From positions 6,392 to 70,391 of the forward strand of contig LCCV01000003.1 in NCBI GenBank assembly GCA_000998135.1: a stretch of DNA of 64,000 bases, given 5' to 3'. Position 1 is the stretch's first letter. Each line of letters opens with the position of its first letter. This DNA is from Parcubacteria group bacterium GW2011_GWA2_42_14. Its GTDB lineage: Bacteria; Patescibacteriota; Minisyncoccia; Sungbacterales; GWA2-42-14. The notes beneath the pieces are model-generated. The model saw only the letters and a program-made list of their open reading frames with translations, did no database searches and was not told where the DNA came from. The translations under genes and the position numbers were made by a program. Shown in pieces: positions 1-7,200 of the stretch.

Positions 1-1
1 G

Positions 2-259
2 ATCATTGAAGCAAGCGACCCAGAAAAAGCCGAGCAAGGAATCGCCAAGTTGGTTCTCACCTTGATAGAGTTGATCCGGCAACTTTTGGAAAGAGAGGCG
101 GTGAGAAGGGTCGATACCGGTACGCTTTCCGAGACGGAAATTCAGAAATTGGGACTAACCTTCAAGGCGTTGGAGAAAAAGATTCAAGAAATGAAAGCGG
201 TTTTCGGCATTAAAGAGGAACTGAATTTGGAGTTGGGGCCGCTGGGCAATCTCCTCTGA
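2..259 (+). CDS. gvpK: Gas vesicle protein GvpK (5' end truncated by the window edge)
   Basis: The reading frame is open from nt 2. The translation ...LVLTLIELIRQLLEREAVRRVDTG.LSE.E..KLGL......NLELGPLGNLL fits the GvpK family pattern as I recall it. Confidence 0.7.
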   Translation: MIEASDPEKAEQGIAKLVLTLIELIRQLLEREAVRRVDTGTLSETEIQKLGLTFKALEKKIQEMKAVFGIKEELNLELGPLGNLL

Positions 260-293
260 ATATTTGGGCGTTTATTAAAAATTTATTTTATCT

Positions 294-566
294 ATGACAA
301 ACGAACAAAAGAAAAAATTATCAGACCAAGAGATGACGAAGAAATCTCAGCAAGCGACCTTGCGTATGGCACAGGAATGGCAAAAGTCGGAAGACACAAT
401 CCACCACGCGCTCAAGTCGTATGAGGATGTGATTCAGGTTGACCCTGAAAGCGATGAGGCTGGTGAGGCGCGTGAGGCGCTCGTGAAAATTGCCGAGGAT
501 TGGGATAAAAAAGGTCGAAAATATGCCGCCGCGAAACTGTATAAGAAATTAATGGTCGGCAGATAA
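294..566 (+). CDS. hypothetical protein in the gvp cluster (helical, TPR-like pair)
   Basis: 90-aa ORF lying between gvpK and gvpA/J. No recognisable motif. Confidence 0.4.
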   Translation: MTNEQKKKLSDQEMTKKSQQATLRMAQEWQKSEDTIHHALKSYEDVIQVDPESDEAGEAREALVKIAEDWDKKGRKYAAAKLYKKLMVGR

Positions 567-583
567 GCACTTGATAAAAATTT

Positions 584-898
584 ATGGATAGACAAAAAGT
601 AGGAACAATGTCTCAGACAACCAACCTCGCCGACATTTTAGAGCGGGTTTTGGATAAGGGCATTGTCATTGCCGGCGACATCCGGGTGCAATTGGCGGAC
701 GTCGAGCTTTTGAATATCAAGATTCGACTTCTCATTGCCTCGGTAGAGAAAGCCAAAGAAATCGGAATCAGTTGGTGGGAGCATGACTCATATCTTTCGC
801 CAAAAGCAAAAGAGTTTGAATTGTCCAAAGAAAATACCAAACTGGTTAAGCGTATAGAATCTTTAGAGGACAAACTGAAGGTCAAGCGCGGGAAGTAA
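584..898 (+). CDS. gvpJ: Gas vesicle structural protein, GvpA/GvpJ family (GvpJ-like with a C-terminal coiled-coil extension)
   Basis: LADILERVLDKGIVIAGDIRVQLADVELLNIKIRLLIASVEKAKEIG matches the conserved GvpA core ([29 protein letters not shown]...IASVETY). The extra ~40 aa at the C-terminus is typical of GvpJ. Confidence 0.85.
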   Translation: MDRQKVGTMSQTTNLADILERVLDKGIVIAGDIRVQLADVELLNIKIRLLIASVEKAKEIGISWWEHDSYLSPKAKEFELSKENTKLVKRIESLEDKLKVKRGK

Positions 899-906
899 AC
901 TTATTT

Positions 907-1428
907 ATGCCAAGCACGATTGAACAAGTCAAAGAGGTAATTTTGAAGCGCGGAGGCAGGGCGTCTAAACATCAGATCGCGCGAGAGCTCAAAATAAGTT
1001 CGGATTACGCGGGCCTTGTTTTAGGCGAGTTGAAAAGAAAAGAAGAAGTTGCTTTTTCCGGCGGATTATATGTCTTGACTCCCGGCAAAAGGGGTGTTAA
1101 TCCAGAGAAAACAGAGGAAATCGTTACTGCGCCAGCCGAAAAACGACCTGCCCGTCGATCAAGGAGACCCAAGCGAACAAAGAAGGCCCCGAAGGAAAGC
1201 AAGCTTCCAACGGGGCAGGCAAAAATCCAGAAAGTTGAGAAAAACCAGCCTCAACCCCTTGTCGCCGCGTTAGGGATCAGCAAGTCATTGACAAGGACTC
1301 TGGAGAAAGCGGGATACGCCACGATAGAATCTATTGCGGAAGCCCCTATTAATAAATTGATGGCAGACGCAAAACTCAAACTTAGCGCCGCCGCTCGATT
1401 GATCAACCAAGCAAGAAAAACAAAGTGA
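907..1428 (+). CDS. winged-helix plus helix-hairpin-helix DNA-binding protein, hypothetical
   Basis: The N-terminus (HQIARELKISSDYAGLVLGELKRK) looks like a wHTH. A basic linker follows, then an HhH-like tail (LGISKSLTRTLEKAGYATIESIAEAP). Confidence 0.5.
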   Translation: MPSTIEQVKEVILKRGGRASKHQIARELKISSDYAGLVLGELKRKEEVAFSGGLYVLTPGKRGVNPEKTEEIVTAPAEKRPARRSRRPKRTKKAPKESKLPTGQAKIQKVEKNQPQPLVAALGISKSLTRTLEKAGYATIESIAEAPINKLMADAKLKLSAAARLINQARKTK

Positions 1429-1469
1429 TTTATGGCTACAGCGAGCATCGATATTAACAGAAGGTCCCC

Positions 1470-2588
1470 ATGACTGAAGAAAGAAAATACATATATTCAA
1501 TAATTAATAACCCGAAAGAGATGCGGGTCTCAGACGCCTCTCGTCTACCGGGAGATCTATTTGGCATTAACAATCGCGATATAACTTTTATCTCCTATAG
1601 AGATATATCAGCTGCGGTTAGCAATATCCATCTTATTAATTTTGACAAGTTTGATAAAAAAGAACTCCATCAATTAATTGCGGCGCATGATCAGGTAAAT
1701 GTTAGTCTTATGAAGAAACACGATATTATTCCAATGAGATTTGGAATGATCGCAGAAAGCGCGGAAGAAATTCGCAATATTTTAGCCAAAGCATATATAC
1801 AATTTAAAACCGCTCTCGAAAGAATTGCCGGGAAAGCCGAATTCATCGTTCAAGTATTTTGGAACGAAAAGAATATACTTGAAAAGATAGTTCAGGAAAA
1901 TATTGAAATCCAAAAGTTAAAAAAGGATGTAGAGTCAAAGGGCAAGATTTTAGGGTTTTCATCCAAAATAAAATTAGGTAAGCGCATATTTGAGGGATTA
2001 GAGTCATGCCGCAAAGAATATACGGAAGGCATTTTAAGTAACCTCGCAACCAGCTTTCCAAATTTTAGCGCCGGCAAACTTCTCGATGCAAACAAAGAAA
2101 GCGCTGCTAACGAGACAAAAAAAGAAATGATTATGAACTATTCGTTTTTGATAGGCGCGACAGAAGAATCAGCTCTATCATTTAGATTGAATCAATTAGC
2201 TGAAAAATATAAAGATGAGATTAAGTTTAAATATATCGGGCCTATGGCGCCTTACAGCTTCGCTATTATTAATCTCAGTTTGGGAAACTTTGATTTAGTT
2301 GATAATGCCAGAAGGACTTTTGGGCTCGGAGAATCGGCGGCATTTTCAGAAATAAAAAAGATTTACTATAAGTTGGCTGGACAGCATCACCCAGACAAAC
2401 AAGCTTTTACAAAAGATCGGGTTATATTAGAGGGAGCAGAAAAGAAGATGAAAGACATAATAACAGCCAATGAGGTTTTAACTATTTATTGCAAGCATTA
2501 TCTTTCGGCTCTCGCGCCTGAGAAAGAGCAGCTTTGCTCTTTTAGAAAAGAAGATGTAGAAGATTCAATTATTGTAAAAACAAAGTGA
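1470..2588 (+). CDS. gvpF: Gas vesicle protein GvpF/GvpL family with a C-terminal J-domain-like (HPD) extension
   Basis: YIYSIIN...IPMRFGMIAESAEEIRNIL...AEFIVQVFWNEK matches the GvpF/L pattern (YLYGI..LPLRFG..VKVFWD). The tail contains YYKLAGQHHPDK, an HPD-loop-like motif. Confidence 0.8.
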   Translation: MTEERKYIYSIINNPKEMRVSDASRLPGDLFGINNRDITFISYRDISAAVSNIHLINFDKFDKKELHQLIAAHDQVNVSLMKKHDIIPMRFGMIAESAEEIRNILAKAYIQFKTALERIAGKAEFIVQVFWNEKNILEKIVQENIEIQKLKKDVESKGKILGFSSKIKLGKRIFEGLESCRKEYTEGILSNLATSFPNFSAGKLLDANKESAANETKKEMIMNYSFLIGATEESALSFRLNQLAEKYKDEIKFKYIGPMAPYSFAIINLSLGNFDLVDNARRTFGLGESAAFSEIKKIYYKLAGQHHPDKQAFTKDRVILEGAEKKMKDIITANEVLTIYCKHYLSALAPEKEQLCSFRKEDVEDSIIVKTK

Positions 2589-2591
2589 TTT

Positions 2592-2750
2592 ATGGCAATG
2601 GCAAGCATAGATACAAGCGAGTTGGAATATTTTAAATCATGCAGAGATAAACTGCGGGATATTGGCGATATTTTGAAAGACAAGAACGATGAAAAAGAAT
2701 TATCGATTGAGGAAAAACTAAGAGAAATAAAAAAGATTCTTAAAGGATGA
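2592..2750 (+). CDS. small helical protein (52 aa), hypothetical
   Basis: ORF MAMASIDTSELEYFKSCRDKLRDIGDIL... Its start region duplicates the sequence at 1421-1458. Confidence 0.3.
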   Translation: MAMASIDTSELEYFKSCRDKLRDIGDILKDKNDEKELSIEEKLREIKKILKG

Positions 2751-2850: not shown

Positions 2851-4350
2851 ATGGCGACCCCTAAAAATATTATGCCGCAGGGCGGCAATCTACCTGAGTC
2901 CACATTTGGGGCCCGCATTAAAGTTGTCGGCGTAGGCGGTTCCGGCTCAAATGCGGTTGATCACATGATAAACTCTGGCGTGCGCGGGGTTGATTTTATT
3001 GTGGTTAATTGCGATACCCAGGATCTTCATCATAATAAGGCGGAGAAAAAAATACATATTGGCAAAAACTTGACCCGCGGACTTGGAGCCGGGATGAACC
3101 CCGAGGTCGGTAGGCGCGCGGCTGAGGAAACCAAAAACGAGCTTCAGGACGCGCTGAAGGGCGCGGATATGGTATTTATTACCTGCGGATTGGGCGGAGG
3201 AACCGGTACTGGCGCGTCCCCGATTATTGCCGAAATAGCGAGAACCCAAGGGGCTCTTACCCTCGCGGTGGTGACAAAACCTTTTTCTTTTGAGGGGGCT
3301 GAGCGATCAAGAATTGCCGAGGATGGTTTGAGAGAACTTATAGGGGTAGTTGACACCGTTATCGTCATTCCTAACGACCGACTTTTGGAAATCAGCGATA
3401 AAAAAACCACCCTTCAAAATGCTTTCGCGCTCTGCGATGATGTCTTGAAAAACGCGGTTCAGGGCATCTCCGAACTCATCGTAATGCCAGGCATTGTTAA
3501 TCTCGACTTTGCCGATGTAAAGACAATTATGGGAGACGCGGGCCCAGCCATCATGGGAATAGGATCGGCCCAGGGAGACGAACGCGCGGTTGAGGCGGCT
3601 CGAAAAGCAATCAGTTCTCCTTTGCTTGATATTTCCATTAACGGCGCAAGAGGGATTCTTTTTGCGGTCGCCGGCGGAGAAGATTTGACGCTTCATGAAA
3701 TCAACGAAGCCGCAAAGGTTATTACAGAATCAGCCGACCCGCAGGCCAAAATCATATTTGGAGCTTTTCGAGATGATGCTATTAATAAAGGTTCGATAAA
3801 GATTACCGTCATTGCGGCCGGCTTCGCCAATCCGGGCCCAAACATTATTGCCTCGCCGCGGCCAAGAATTTTTGAGAACCAGGAGACAGCGGAAGAAAAA
3901 GGAGATGATGACGATATGGATAAGCCCGCTTTTTTGCGTAGAGGAAAATCGCCGCCTTCATCTCCGCAGGAAGGAGCTCGCCACGAAGGACACAAAAGAA
4001 AAAACGAGAATCCTCACAGAATTTCTCTTAATGCTTCTGTGGCGGGAGATATCATAAGGAAACTCCCATCAAATAATTTTATAGAAAATTATGGAATCAA
4101 AGACGAGGCATCCCGCGGCATAGATCTGCGGGATTTTAATGATAATAAAGACCGCGCCTCAACTCCCGCAAACCGATATGAAAATTTTCGTATTAACGCG
4201 AAAAAGACGCTCATCGCAACTTTAGCTATTTTTAAAAAGGCAGGGGAAATTTTTCTTATGCTTATTTTTGGGATAATAACCATCGTAGCTCTTGGGTTTT
4301 ACAGAATTTACAGTTTAATTAAGAAGCGGTTTCAACGAACGATTTATTAA
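2851..4350 (+). CDS. ftsZ: Cell division GTPase FtsZ with an extra C-terminal extension ending in a transmembrane helix
   Basis: VVGVGGSGSNAV, the GGGTGTGASP tubulin signature and NLDFADVKTIM are present. The conserved C-terminal peptide DKPAFLRRGK is followed by ~130 aa ending in the hydrophobic segment LIATLAIFKKAGEIFLMLIFGIITIVALGFY. Confidence 0.95.
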   Translation: MATPKNIMPQGGNLPESTFGARIKVVGVGGSGSNAVDHMINSGVRGVDFIVVNCDTQDLHHNKAEKKIHIGKNLTRGLGAGMNPEVGRRAAEETKNELQDALKGADMVFITCGLGGGTGTGASPIIAEIARTQGALTLAVVTKPFSFEGAERSRIAEDGLRELIGVVDTVIVIPNDRLLEISDKKTTLQNAFALCDDVLKNAVQGISELIVMPGIVNLDFADVKTIMGDAGPAIMGIGSAQGDERAVEAARKAISSPLLDISINGARGILFAVAGGEDLTLHEINEAAKVITESADPQAKIIFGAFRDDAINKGSIKITVIAAGFANPGPNIIASPRPRIFENQETAEEKGDDDDMDKPAFLRRGKSPPSSPQEGARHEGHKRKNENPHRISLNASVAGDIIRKLPSNNFIENYGIKDEASRGIDLRDFNDNKDRASTPANRYENFRINAKKTLIATLAIFKKAGEIFLMLIFGIITIVALGFYRIYSLIKKRFQRTIY

Positions 4351-6099: not shown

Positions 6100-7200
6100 T
6101 TATTGTATCAGGAACTCTTCTATTTTTTTATTAGCCATTGTTTCTCCGTTTTGTCCTGATGCGACCCAGTAAATATCTTTATTTCTTTTAAACCACGTCA
6201 TCTGTCTTTTGGCGTACTGATGGATGGCGTTTTTTAATTTTTCCTTCATTTCGGCTCGCGCAAGTTTTTTTTGTAAAAAAAGTGAAACAAAGCGATATTC
6301 AAGCCCTAAAGATTGGAGGCGTTTATGCGAAACGCCTTTTTTTAATAAATTTTTAACCTCCTGAAACATGCCTTGTTTTAAGTGTGATTTTAGGCGTTTA
6401 TCTATTTTTTTATGGAGTTCTTTTTGGGGCAGATTTATGCCTAAAATTAGCGAATTCCAAAGATTAGCCCTGTTTTCAATGCTAATCCTTGGAATTGGGG
6501 AAATCGGTCTCGAGGTGGCTTTTACTATTTCAATTGCCCGAATCAGCCGTCTGGGATTATGATGGTCAATTGTTTTTGCGCGTTTTGGGTCGAGTTTTTT
6601 GAGTATTTGAAATAGTTCCGCTATCGATTTTTTAGAAAGTATGGCGCGCAGTTTGGTATTTGGCGGCACATTAGGAATCGGCAGGTTATACAAAACCGTA
6701 TCAACATAAAAACCTGTTCCTCCGCAAAGTATGGGAACTTTTCCGCGCTCATAATTATCTTTTATTGCCGTCTCCGCGCATTTTTTAAAATCTGCAATCG
6801 TAAAAACTTTTTTCGGCGATACGAAATCAATGCAGTGGTGAGGAACGTTTTTGTATATAAATATTTTGGAAGCCCGGTCGTCCAAAAACTGAATTTCGTC
6901 ATTGCGAGCGACCGCGGGGAGCGAAGCAATTTCTTTATTTAAGCCAATTTTAGAGATTGCTTCCTCGTTTCGCTTTCGGCGGAACTCTTCGCAATGACAT
7001 TTTTGGACAGTCGGACTTTCCGATATTGTTTTCCAGTTTCCGGGTACTTTTCCCGTTCCAATATTCAACCCCTTATAAACCTGCCTTGAATCAGCCGAAA
7101 TTATCTCGCCCTTGAATCGGCGAGCGATTTTAACAGCCAATTCCGATTTTCCGGAAGCGGTCGGCCCGACAACGGCGATAATTTTAATCTTTCTTTGCAT
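6100..7200 (-). CDS. miaA: tRNA dimethylallyltransferase MiaA
   Basis: IIAVVGPTASGKSELAVKIARRFKGEIISADSRQVYKGLNIGTGK is a P-loop N-terminus matching MiaA. Confidence 0.9.
   Translation of the reverse strand: MQRKIKIIAVVGPTASGKSELAVKIARRFKGEIISADSRQVYKGLNIGTGKVPGNWKTISESPTVQKCHCEEFRRKRNEEAISKIGLNKEIASLPAVARNDEIQFLDDRASKIFIYKNVPHHCIDFVSPKKVFTIADFKKCAETAIKDNYERGKVPILCGGTGFYVDTVLYNLPIPNVPPNTKLRAILSKKSIAELFQILKKLDPKRAKTIDHHNPRRLIRAIEIVKATSRPISPIPRISIENRANLWNSLILGINLPQKELHKKIDKRLKSHLKQGMFQEVKNLLKKGVSHKRLQSLGLEYRFVSLFLQKKLARAEMKEKLKNAIHQYAKRQMTWFKRNKDIYWVASGQNGETMANKKIEEFLIQ

Follow-up and report, generated by a model that had tools for sequence, protein, structure and literature searches.

A stretch of 64,000 nt from Parcubacteria group bacterium GW2011_GWA2_42_14 (GenBank assembly GCA_000998135.1, contig LCCV01000003.1, forward-strand positions 6,392 to 70,391), here called the window, opens inside a gas-vesicle (gvp) gene cluster, and its positions 1–2750 are the 3′ quarter of a single co-directional gvp operon of ~12.6 kb and ~22 genes. 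The best explanation of the data, held with a probability of about 0.72, is that Candidatus Sungbacteria, members of the candidate phyla radiation (CPR), carry a complete gvp operon and would use it to make gas vesicles whose assembly is assisted by a J domain and Hsp70. The canonical set is complete (GvpA, N, F, L, G, J, K, an M/S-like protein and O), all of its genes are full-length, and, judged from sequence matches, the identity of the operon's parts is close to certain. An original prediction, made from the letters of the window, had named a gvp cluster cut by the window edge; a J domain on a GvpF/L protein, the fusion of a Gas_vesicle domain to GvpK and the identity of a GvpJ protein are additions made here. 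The core itself is an ordinary gvp cluster, and several of its proteins are already named as gas-vesicle proteins in GenBank.

Genes upstream of the window were read from the same scaffold (loci L001 and L047 of the sequences fetched for comparison). The operon begins with gvpA, a repeat protein, a DnaJ-type zinc-finger protein, a second repeat protein, gvpN, u131, a second zinc-finger protein and u92; it continues with a wHTH-acidic protein, a Get3/ArsA-like ATPase, an MscS-like membrane protein, gvpF, gvpG, gvpO and gvpL, and ends with a Gas_vesicle::gvpK fusion, u90, a gvpJ-like gene, a wHTH-(HhH)2 protein, gvpF::J and u52, after which ftsZ follows. The major shell protein GvpA is encoded on the window's own scaffold by a 68-aa Gas_vesicle gene of the gene table, which lies on the same strand and ends at L047:29, ~9.7 kb upstream of the window; its last 29 nt were read directly and give the C-terminus ...IGLTATAA followed by a stop codon, which is canonical for GvpA. 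The AAA+ ATPase GvpN (L001:1386–2351) matched TIGR02640 gas_vesic_GvpN with 347.7 bits, against an equivalog cutoff of 266.8. An F-like gvpF (L001:5911–6741) and an L-like gvpL (L001:7311–8150) both belong to the GvpL_GvpF family, which together with the product of window 1470–2588 gives three such proteins in the operon. GvpG (L001:6754–7005) matched PF05120, and NCBIfam NF045779 with E 2.8e-10, under that model's strict cutoff; GvpO (L001:7015–7305) matched PF05800. The cluster had been expected to continue upstream with gvpN and gvpA, and both were found there, with gvpG, gvpO and two further gvpF/L genes, so that the genes in the window are not isolated remnants lacking gvpA or gvpN. Promoter-like and terminator-like sites were within ~1.5 s.d. 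of the shuffled expectation, which fits a single transcription unit, although the consensus used may not apply to CPR.

The window's share of the operon consists of six plus-strand open reading frames (ORFs) spaced by 3–41 nt, all of them present with the motifs quoted in the original prediction, and its three family assignments held, with Pfam matches to GvpK, Gas_vesicle and GvpL_GvpF above the curated cutoffs. The first ORF (window 1–259, plus strand) had been called GvpK with a start at position 50, which was wrong. The partial 85-aa translation of positions 2–259 matched Pfam GvpK with E 9.6e-30 and 103 bits (cutoff 25) over profile positions 4–85 of 85, and the full ORF (L001:8137–8790, 217 aa) begins 395 nt upstream of the window. 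The window opens at approximately residue 133 of this protein, and what had been called GvpK is thus the C-terminal domain (~residues 133–217) of a fusion that starts outside the window. The fusion holds a Gas_vesicle domain of the GvpM/S/J-like kind in its N-terminal half (residues 50–88, E 2.8e-11) and GvpK at residues 137–217 (E 1.7e-28). The same architecture was present in 8/8 CPR homologues tested, and GvpK stood alone in 2 non-CPR clusters. The annotated start codon differs between databases, GenBank giving 159 aa, which cuts the Gas_vesicle domain, and ENA 217 aa.

The 104-aa product of window 584–898 (plus strand) has a Gas_vesicle core at residues 10–56 (Pfam E 5.9e-17, 62 bits; cutoff 25), followed by a helical C-terminal tail. 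PDB entries 8gbs and 7r1c align with it over their GvpA cores, and its best NCBIfam model is GvpJ (54 bits, below the strict cutoff), ahead of the GvpA models. The earlier designation GvpA/J was therefore kept as to the Gas_vesicle family and the likeness to GvpJ and dropped as to GvpA: the true gvpA lies upstream, and the window's Gas_vesicle-family proteins are this GvpJ-like minor shell protein and the fusion that enters from upstream. Between them the two account for the GvpJ, GvpM(S) and GvpK components. The start of the gvpJ-like gene is annotated to give either 104 aa or, from the second ATG, 96 aa.

The 372-aa product of window 1470–2588 (plus strand), the third GvpF/L paralogue of the operon, carries a C-terminal J domain and is here called GvpF::J. 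Its GvpL_GvpF part spans residues 6–265 (Pfam E 8.9e-52, 177 bits), and Pfam DnaJ matched residues 285–338 (E 3.3e-8, 33.9 bits against a cutoff of 27.8). In a PDB search the GvpF structures 6l5d and 4qsg matched residues 70–267 and human J domains matched residues 279–342, which places the J domain at approximately residues 279–342 (nt ~2304–2495) with its HPD motif at residues 307–309. This tripeptide is the one by which J domains trigger ATP hydrolysis by Hsp70, and every J-domain protein studied needs it for that step. Among 24 aligned GvpF::J proteins, 44–76% identical to the query, H307, P308 and D309 were invariant (24/24), together with other J-domain positions. Homologues of the whole protein fell into 138 clusters at E <= 1e-5; among the matches listed, both Pfam domains were found in 119/120 clusters, and all named ones were Patescibacteria or unclassified ‘bacterium’. 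All ten distant homologues tested had GvpL_GvpF and J domains, most of the latter scoring 44–63 bits. The architecture is not specific to CPR: it also occurs in metagenome-assembled genomes (MAGs) titled Chloroflexota, Dehalococcoidales, Clostridia, Deltaproteobacteria, Thermodesulfobacteriota and Elusimicrobia, and in the cultivated Thiohalocapsa sp. ML1.

For the comparison with relatives, one genome per species was taken, giving 36 loci to which the operon proteins were mapped by phmmer. Approximately 20 CPR loci share GvpA, the repeat proteins, a zinc-finger protein, GvpN, u131, a small wHTH protein, GvpF::J, GvpF, GvpG, GvpL, the Gas_vesicle::GvpK fusion and the GvpJ-like protein, and most also hold an ArsA homologue; gene order is partly rearranged among them. 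Their titles include Falkowbacteria, Doudnabacteria, Portnoybacteria, Spechtbacterales, Minisyncoccales and ‘Patescibacteria group’, and the whole gvp set is present in a single-cell Patescibacteria genome, SAG AM-312-K06 (L031). In the CPR relatives GvpA is a separate protein of 67–82 aa that, in the sequences compared, differs from Anabaena GvpA at a handful of positions only (phmmer E 1e-30 to 1e-34). The set is retained across CPR lineages in which GvpF::J is just 41–75% identical.

Selection on the operon was read from one comparison of the scaffold with a locus from another Rifle sample (L004). The two differ in a single divergent tract of 1.96 kb (window −1122 to 841; L001:7409–9372) with 280 differences (~14%), and outside it they are 100% identical, for 2 kb or more on the upstream side and 6 kb or more on the downstream side. 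Four genes are touched by the tract, namely gvpL (its 3′ portion), the Gas_vesicle::GvpK fusion, u90 and the gvpJ-like gene (the greater part of it), for which pN/pS was 0.17, 0.07, 0.26 (over 72 substitutions) and 0.18, respectively. All four are under purifying selection. The tract looks like the product of homologous recombination that swapped alleles within the operon between co-occurring strains.

The host of the gvp contig is a member of the CPR by the depositors' classification. An exact look-up of the 372-aa protein gave matches on 13 contigs. Over 12,588 nt the window sequence matches ENA scaffold_117 (194,763 bp, Rifle groundwater, SAMN03202995, ERZ28564302) and GenBank MHQY01000011.1 at 100% identity, and eight further loci from independent assemblies are 98.6–100% identical to it. 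GvpF::J, FtsZ, ThrRS and further window proteins have identical counterparts in three deposited bins, Candidatus Sungbacteria bacterium RIFCSPLOWO2_12_FULL_41_11, RIFCSPHIGHO2_02_FULL_41_12b (Candidatus Sungbacteria) and Parcubacteria group bacterium GW2011_GWA2_42_14; the NCBI lineage of the depositing bins is Patescibacteria group, Parcubacteria group, Candidatus Sungiibacteriota. The ‘CPR-like’ host of the original prediction was thus recovered in two Candidatus Sungbacteria bins and one Parcubacteria bin. A tRNA scan of the 64-kb window found no tRNA genes and no Rfam family reached the gathering threshold in it, which leaves the window without rRNA or tRNA for an independent placement of the host.

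Several genes of the operon lie outside the canonical set. The two repeat proteins (254 aa, L047:500–1264; 204 aa, L001:681–1295) flank the gene of the first zinc-finger protein between gvpA and gvpN and have in common the repeated motif (R/K)KxDFxxMMxDI. Each zinc-finger protein has four CXXCXGXG motifs; with Pfam DnaJ_CXXCXGXG (cutoff 32.7) the first, Zn1 (136 aa), scored 29.3 bits, below the cutoff, and the second, Zn2 (148 aa), 32.9 bits, barely above it. The 131-aa protein u131 is encoded between gvpN and the Zn2 gene, and the 92-aa u92 3′ of the latter. These are followed by the wHTH-acidic protein (273 aa, a winged helix and an acidic tail), a one-domain Get3/ArsA-family ATPase of 318 aa (L001:4282–5238; TIGR00345 265.8 bits against a cutoff of 135) and, between this ATPase and gvpF, the MscS-like membrane protein. 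The gvp-linked ArsA/Get3 proteins are of the one-domain type (310–327 aa) in this genome and in L013, L015, L017, L033 and L034, and of the two-domain type (650–690 aa) in L021, L022, L024 and L028–L031.

The window ORFs 294–566, 907–1428 and 2592–2750 (all plus strand) matched no Pfam or NCBIfam family at threshold. They are nevertheless real, conserved genes; the first and third are the two small ORFs that had been said not to be canonical gvp genes, and both are conserved among gvp-cluster homologues. The first encodes u90 (90 aa), a conserved accessory protein with 56 homologue clusters of ~90 aa (66–114 aa) at 59–100% identity, all named ones being Patescibacteria, Parcubacteria or unclassified ‘bacterium’. 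The alignment has 24 invariant columns, and the AlphaFold2 model (pLDDT 85) predicts four helices in a TPR-like arrangement. Assignment by Pfam, NCBIfam, PDB and fold comparison gave only a generic likeness to TPR and designed helical-repeat proteins (E >= 0.06). Homologues of u90 lie inside the gvp clusters of L011, L017, L020, L022, L025 and L037, one of which is titled Chloroflexota. The third ORF, with which the operon ends, encodes u52, a charged peptide of 52 aa that is probably helical. Pfam and NCBIfam gave it no family; a search of 1.84 billion proteins returned a small set of 11 representatives (36–72 aa, E <= 1e-3), and a homologue with 53% identity over 51 aa stands at the 3′ end of the L018 gvp cluster.

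The second of these ORFs (907–1428) encodes a 173-aa protein, also annotated at 161 aa, with a wHTH domain at residues 1–57, a K/R-rich disordered linker at ~60–115 and an (HhH)2 domain at 118–172. Across its 51 homologue clusters the two terminal domains are conserved while the basic linker varies, and homologues lie inside the gvp clusters L013, L019, L024 and L031. AlphaFold2 modelled the C-terminal domain with a pLDDT of ~90 and the N-terminal domain with ~80. With Foldseek the C-terminal domain matched the N-terminal (HhH)2 domain of RadA/Rad51 (rmsd 1.0–1.6 Å over ~50 residues, 31–37% identity) and also NusA AR2; Pfam HHH_5 gave a weak score of 18.4 bits, below its cutoff. The predicted fold thus agrees with the earlier description of this ORF as wHTH/HhH, and the protein is probably a DNA-binding regulator of the operon.

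The gvpF::J gene is bracketed exactly by two copies of a 38-nt direct repeat, 87% identical and spaced by 1160 nt. Copy 1 (window 1416–1453) takes in the final codons of the wHTH-(HhH)2 gene and the beginning of a stub ORF of 13 codons, MATASIDINRRSP followed by a stop; in copy 2 (window 2576–2613) the final codons of gvpF::J are followed by the opening codons of the 52-aa ORF. The stub resembles the start of that ORF (MAMASIDTSE...), and the genes upstream of the two copies both end in ...KTK and a stop codon. In other CPR lineages gvpF::J stands at a different place in the operon. The repeat has the look of a scar left when gvpF::J was inserted or moved to its place between the wHTH-(HhH)2 gene and u52.

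Directly 3′ of the operon lies ftsZ (window 2851–4350), as it does beside the L015 cluster, whose GvpF::J is only 65% identical; its position in both genomes suggests a conserved chromosomal location and not a recent island. The FtsZ of the window (499 aa) has a long C-terminal extension whose last ~50 codons include a hydrophobic end, EIFLMLIFGIITIVALGFYRIYSLI, a possible C-terminal membrane anchor; beside the L015 cluster the FtsZ ORF (L015:17904–18902) has only 332 aa and is without the extension. The gene of the Get3-type ATPase, which belongs to the family of tail-anchor targeting factors and is linked to gvp clusters in further phyla as well, lies 6 kb upstream of ftsZ.

The mechanism considered for these parts was modelled on the published scheme for the Bacillus megaterium gas-vesicle operon, and what is established here is the parts list. 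In the B. megaterium interaction map, GvpF and GvpG chaperone the amyloid-prone GvpA, GvpJ, GvpS and GvpK seed the bicone, and GvpN elongates it (bioRxiv 10.1101/2023.07.23.550228). In heterologous hosts GvpA causes proteotoxic stress, a shell protein short of its assembly factors being proteotoxic (PMC12848028). By analogy, the GvpF moiety of GvpF::J would bind GvpA or GvpJ and its J domain would switch on DnaK (Hsp70) at the bound client, while the two DnaJ-type zinc-finger proteins and the Get3-like ATPase would hold hydrophobic subunits. The covalent Gas_vesicle::GvpK fusion, with GvpJ, would nucleate the vesicle tip, u90 (TPR-like) and u52 might serve as adaptors, and the wHTH proteins, including wHTH-(HhH)2, would regulate transcription of the operon. 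The product would be gas vesicles that lend buoyancy to an ultra-small cell. An invariant HPD motif in a naturally occurring GvpF::J fusion leads to the prediction that the shell protein bound by GvpF is acted on by Hsp70, and the GvpM/S::GvpK fusion predicts a physical J/S–K seeding complex, in agreement with the interaction-map model. The separate claims differ in strength. That these cells actually produce vesicles is considered probable, at somewhat better than even odds; that GvpF::J couples vesicle assembly to Hsp70 falls a little short of an even chance; and that CPR cells build gas vesicles along the entire Hsp70-linked line (GvpF::J, zinc-finger holdases, Get3-like ATPase and GvpM/S::GvpK nucleator) is put forward tentatively.

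Several points weigh against Hsp70-assisted vesicle formation in Candidatus Sungbacteria. Vesicle function is read here from genes, the value of buoyancy in a porous aquifer is uncertain, and the cells of this group probably measure no more than a few hundred nm across, with room for few vesicles. To our knowledge, some gvp-bearing bacteria, such as Streptomyces, have never been demonstrated to make vesicles. The repeat proteins had no GvpC match in Pfam or NCBIfam and were rejected as members of that family, to which their position and their repetitive, helical character are the only likeness; the roles proposed for u90, u52 and the wHTH-(HhH)2 protein are suggested by fold and position. Finally, no dnaK/Hsp70 signature was found in the 64-kb window or in any of 49 loci, so that the partner of the J domain in this genome is assumed. 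Nor were grpE or clpB signatures found in the window or the 49 loci, and hsp20 was found in three non-CPR clusters only.

The alternative that survives best, although it is unlikely, is that the operon is intact and serves without vesicles for buoyancy: it may be mostly silent, or may yield small bicones or other GvpA assemblies for another use, for example stress tolerance or the control of cell volume or shape, as debated for soil actinomycetes. A groundwater habitat in which the use of flotation is unclear would suit it, as would the odd accessory set of several wHTH proteins, an MscS-like membrane protein and zinc-finger proteins, and no paper on vesicles in CPR cells was found in the literature searched. 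It is opposed by a GvpA nearly unchanged from that of vesicle-forming cyanobacteria, by the retention of the entire canonical set, GvpN included, under purifying selection, and by related clusters from stratified waters in which buoyancy matters (the Black Sea at 750 m, and MAGs with lake titles).

Less likely still is a J domain that works independently of Hsp70, as a structural or dimerisation module or with some other partner. Its Pfam score in this protein is modest, no Hsp70 was located in the window or the fetched loci, and no paper on a GvpF with a J domain was found in the literature searched. Such a domain would have to be reconciled with the HPD motif that is invariant in every aligned homologue, with the 44–63 bits reached by most of the distant homologues tested, and with the DnaJ-type zinc-finger proteins held in the same operons, all of which speak for an Hsp70 partner.

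That the gvp genes came from another organism through misassembly or misbinning is very improbable. Related CPR-type contigs (L011, L017, L018, L020, L023 and L032; GvpF::J 43–73% identical, same synteny) do belong to MAGs whose titles name Gammaproteobacteria, Candidatus Saccharibacteria or Neomarinimicrobiota, and such titles show that the binning or labelling of these contigs is unreliable; they are probably binning or label errors. In the window, however, one contiguous sequence joins the gvp genes to ftsZ, thrS, dnaE and a further 60 kb of the same genome, their GC content (0.43–0.44) lies within the range of the rest of the window (0.38–0.45), and the junction is identical or nearly so in 12 loci of independent assemblies, including the 194.8-kb scaffold. 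The genes are moreover carried by three separate bins from two studies, and the single-cell Patescibacteria genome holds the same cluster. A decaying remnant of horizontal transfer is equally improbable: gene order is rearranged among CPR lineages and the 38-nt duplication around gvpF::J has left a 13-codon stub ORF, but the canonical genes are all full-length, pN/pS is 0.07–0.26, and the same set is kept in CPR lineages as divergent in GvpF::J as described above.

Compared with known systems, the operon resembles the B. megaterium pNL29 operon (gvpB-R-N-F-G-L-S-K-J-T-U) in that a single co-directional operon encodes one shell protein, GvpN, two GvpF/L paralogues, GvpG, a GvpO/R-type protein, GvpK and the two GvpA-like minor proteins J and S. 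It differs in that the second minor protein is covalently fused to GvpK, a third GvpF/L carries a J domain and neither GvpT nor GvpU is among its family matches, and in the addition of two zinc-finger proteins, a Get3/ArsA-like ATPase, u90, u52, u131, u92 and several wHTH proteins. With the cyanobacterial clusters (Anabaena/Microcystis gvpA-C-N-J-K-F-G-V-W) it shares a near-identical GvpA, a match of GvpF structures 4qsg and 6l5d to the GvpF::J protein, and repeat genes between gvpA and gvpN, at the place of gvpC; unlike theirs, its repeat proteins are outside the GvpC family, and GvpV and GvpW were not detected in it. We know of no J-domain or GvpK fusion in the cyanobacterial model clusters.

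An association of ArsA homologues with gvp operons was described by Castillo & Saier in 2010 (PMC2963123) and is thus not new. As in the ArsA/Hsp20 gvp operons of that study, an ArsA/Get3 ATPase stands here, unaccompanied by ars genes, among gvpF/L, G, J, K and N, and chaperone-type genes lie within the operon; the ArsA proteins described there were of the two-domain form only (~640 aa), whereas the one-domain 318-aa form is present here and other CPR loci have forms of 650–690 aa. Hsp20 (alpha-crystallin) genes were found in the GvpF::J clusters of Chloroflexota/Dehalococcoidales relatives (L037:4124–4645, L038:696–1217 and L041:5675–6196) and no Hsp20 signature in any CPR gvp locus, where the J domain and zinc-finger modules stand instead. 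In mechanism, GvpF::J may be compared with class C J-domain proteins (auxilin and clathrin coats, HscB and IscU), in which an HPD-intact J domain is joined to a client-binding module, here GvpF/L, and recruits Hsp70 to an assembling structure; family membership is shared through the J domain only. Unlike the case of auxilin and HscB, the client of GvpF::J (GvpA or GvpJ) is taken from published work on GvpF, and the Hsp70 link is putative.

Full-text literature searches, with most subscription journals outside them, found no paper on gas vesicles in CPR/Patescibacteria, on a GvpF with a J domain or on DnaK in vesicle assembly, which agrees with the earlier remark that such a lineage is not classically associated with gas vesicles. 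As far as could be told, the DnaJ-type zinc-finger proteins in these operons, the Gas_vesicle::GvpK fusion and the u90, u52 and wHTH-(HhH)2 families also appear to be undescribed. A 2020 review of motility systems lists for CPR only flagella and pili genes (PMC7004002).

CPR organisms are usually pictured as ultra-small, attached episymbionts that have no organelles. A complete operon kept under selection in ~20 Parcubacteria-type lineages would imply a planktonic, vertically positioning stage of life, and if vesicles are indeed made they would be the first protein organelle assigned to CPR and would give episymbionts a buoyancy-based dispersal stage. No essential gas-vesicle assembly factor has a defined biochemical function; Hsp70 recruitment, if true, would be the first such activity, and it would be common to the GvpF::J clusters of Chloroflexota, Thermodesulfobacteriota, Clostridia and purple sulfur bacteria. 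Since heterologous vesicle expression is limited by proteotoxic stress and host chaperone capacity (PMC12848028), a compact operon with its own co-chaperone modules may also be a candidate source of parts for better expression of vesicles in other hosts.

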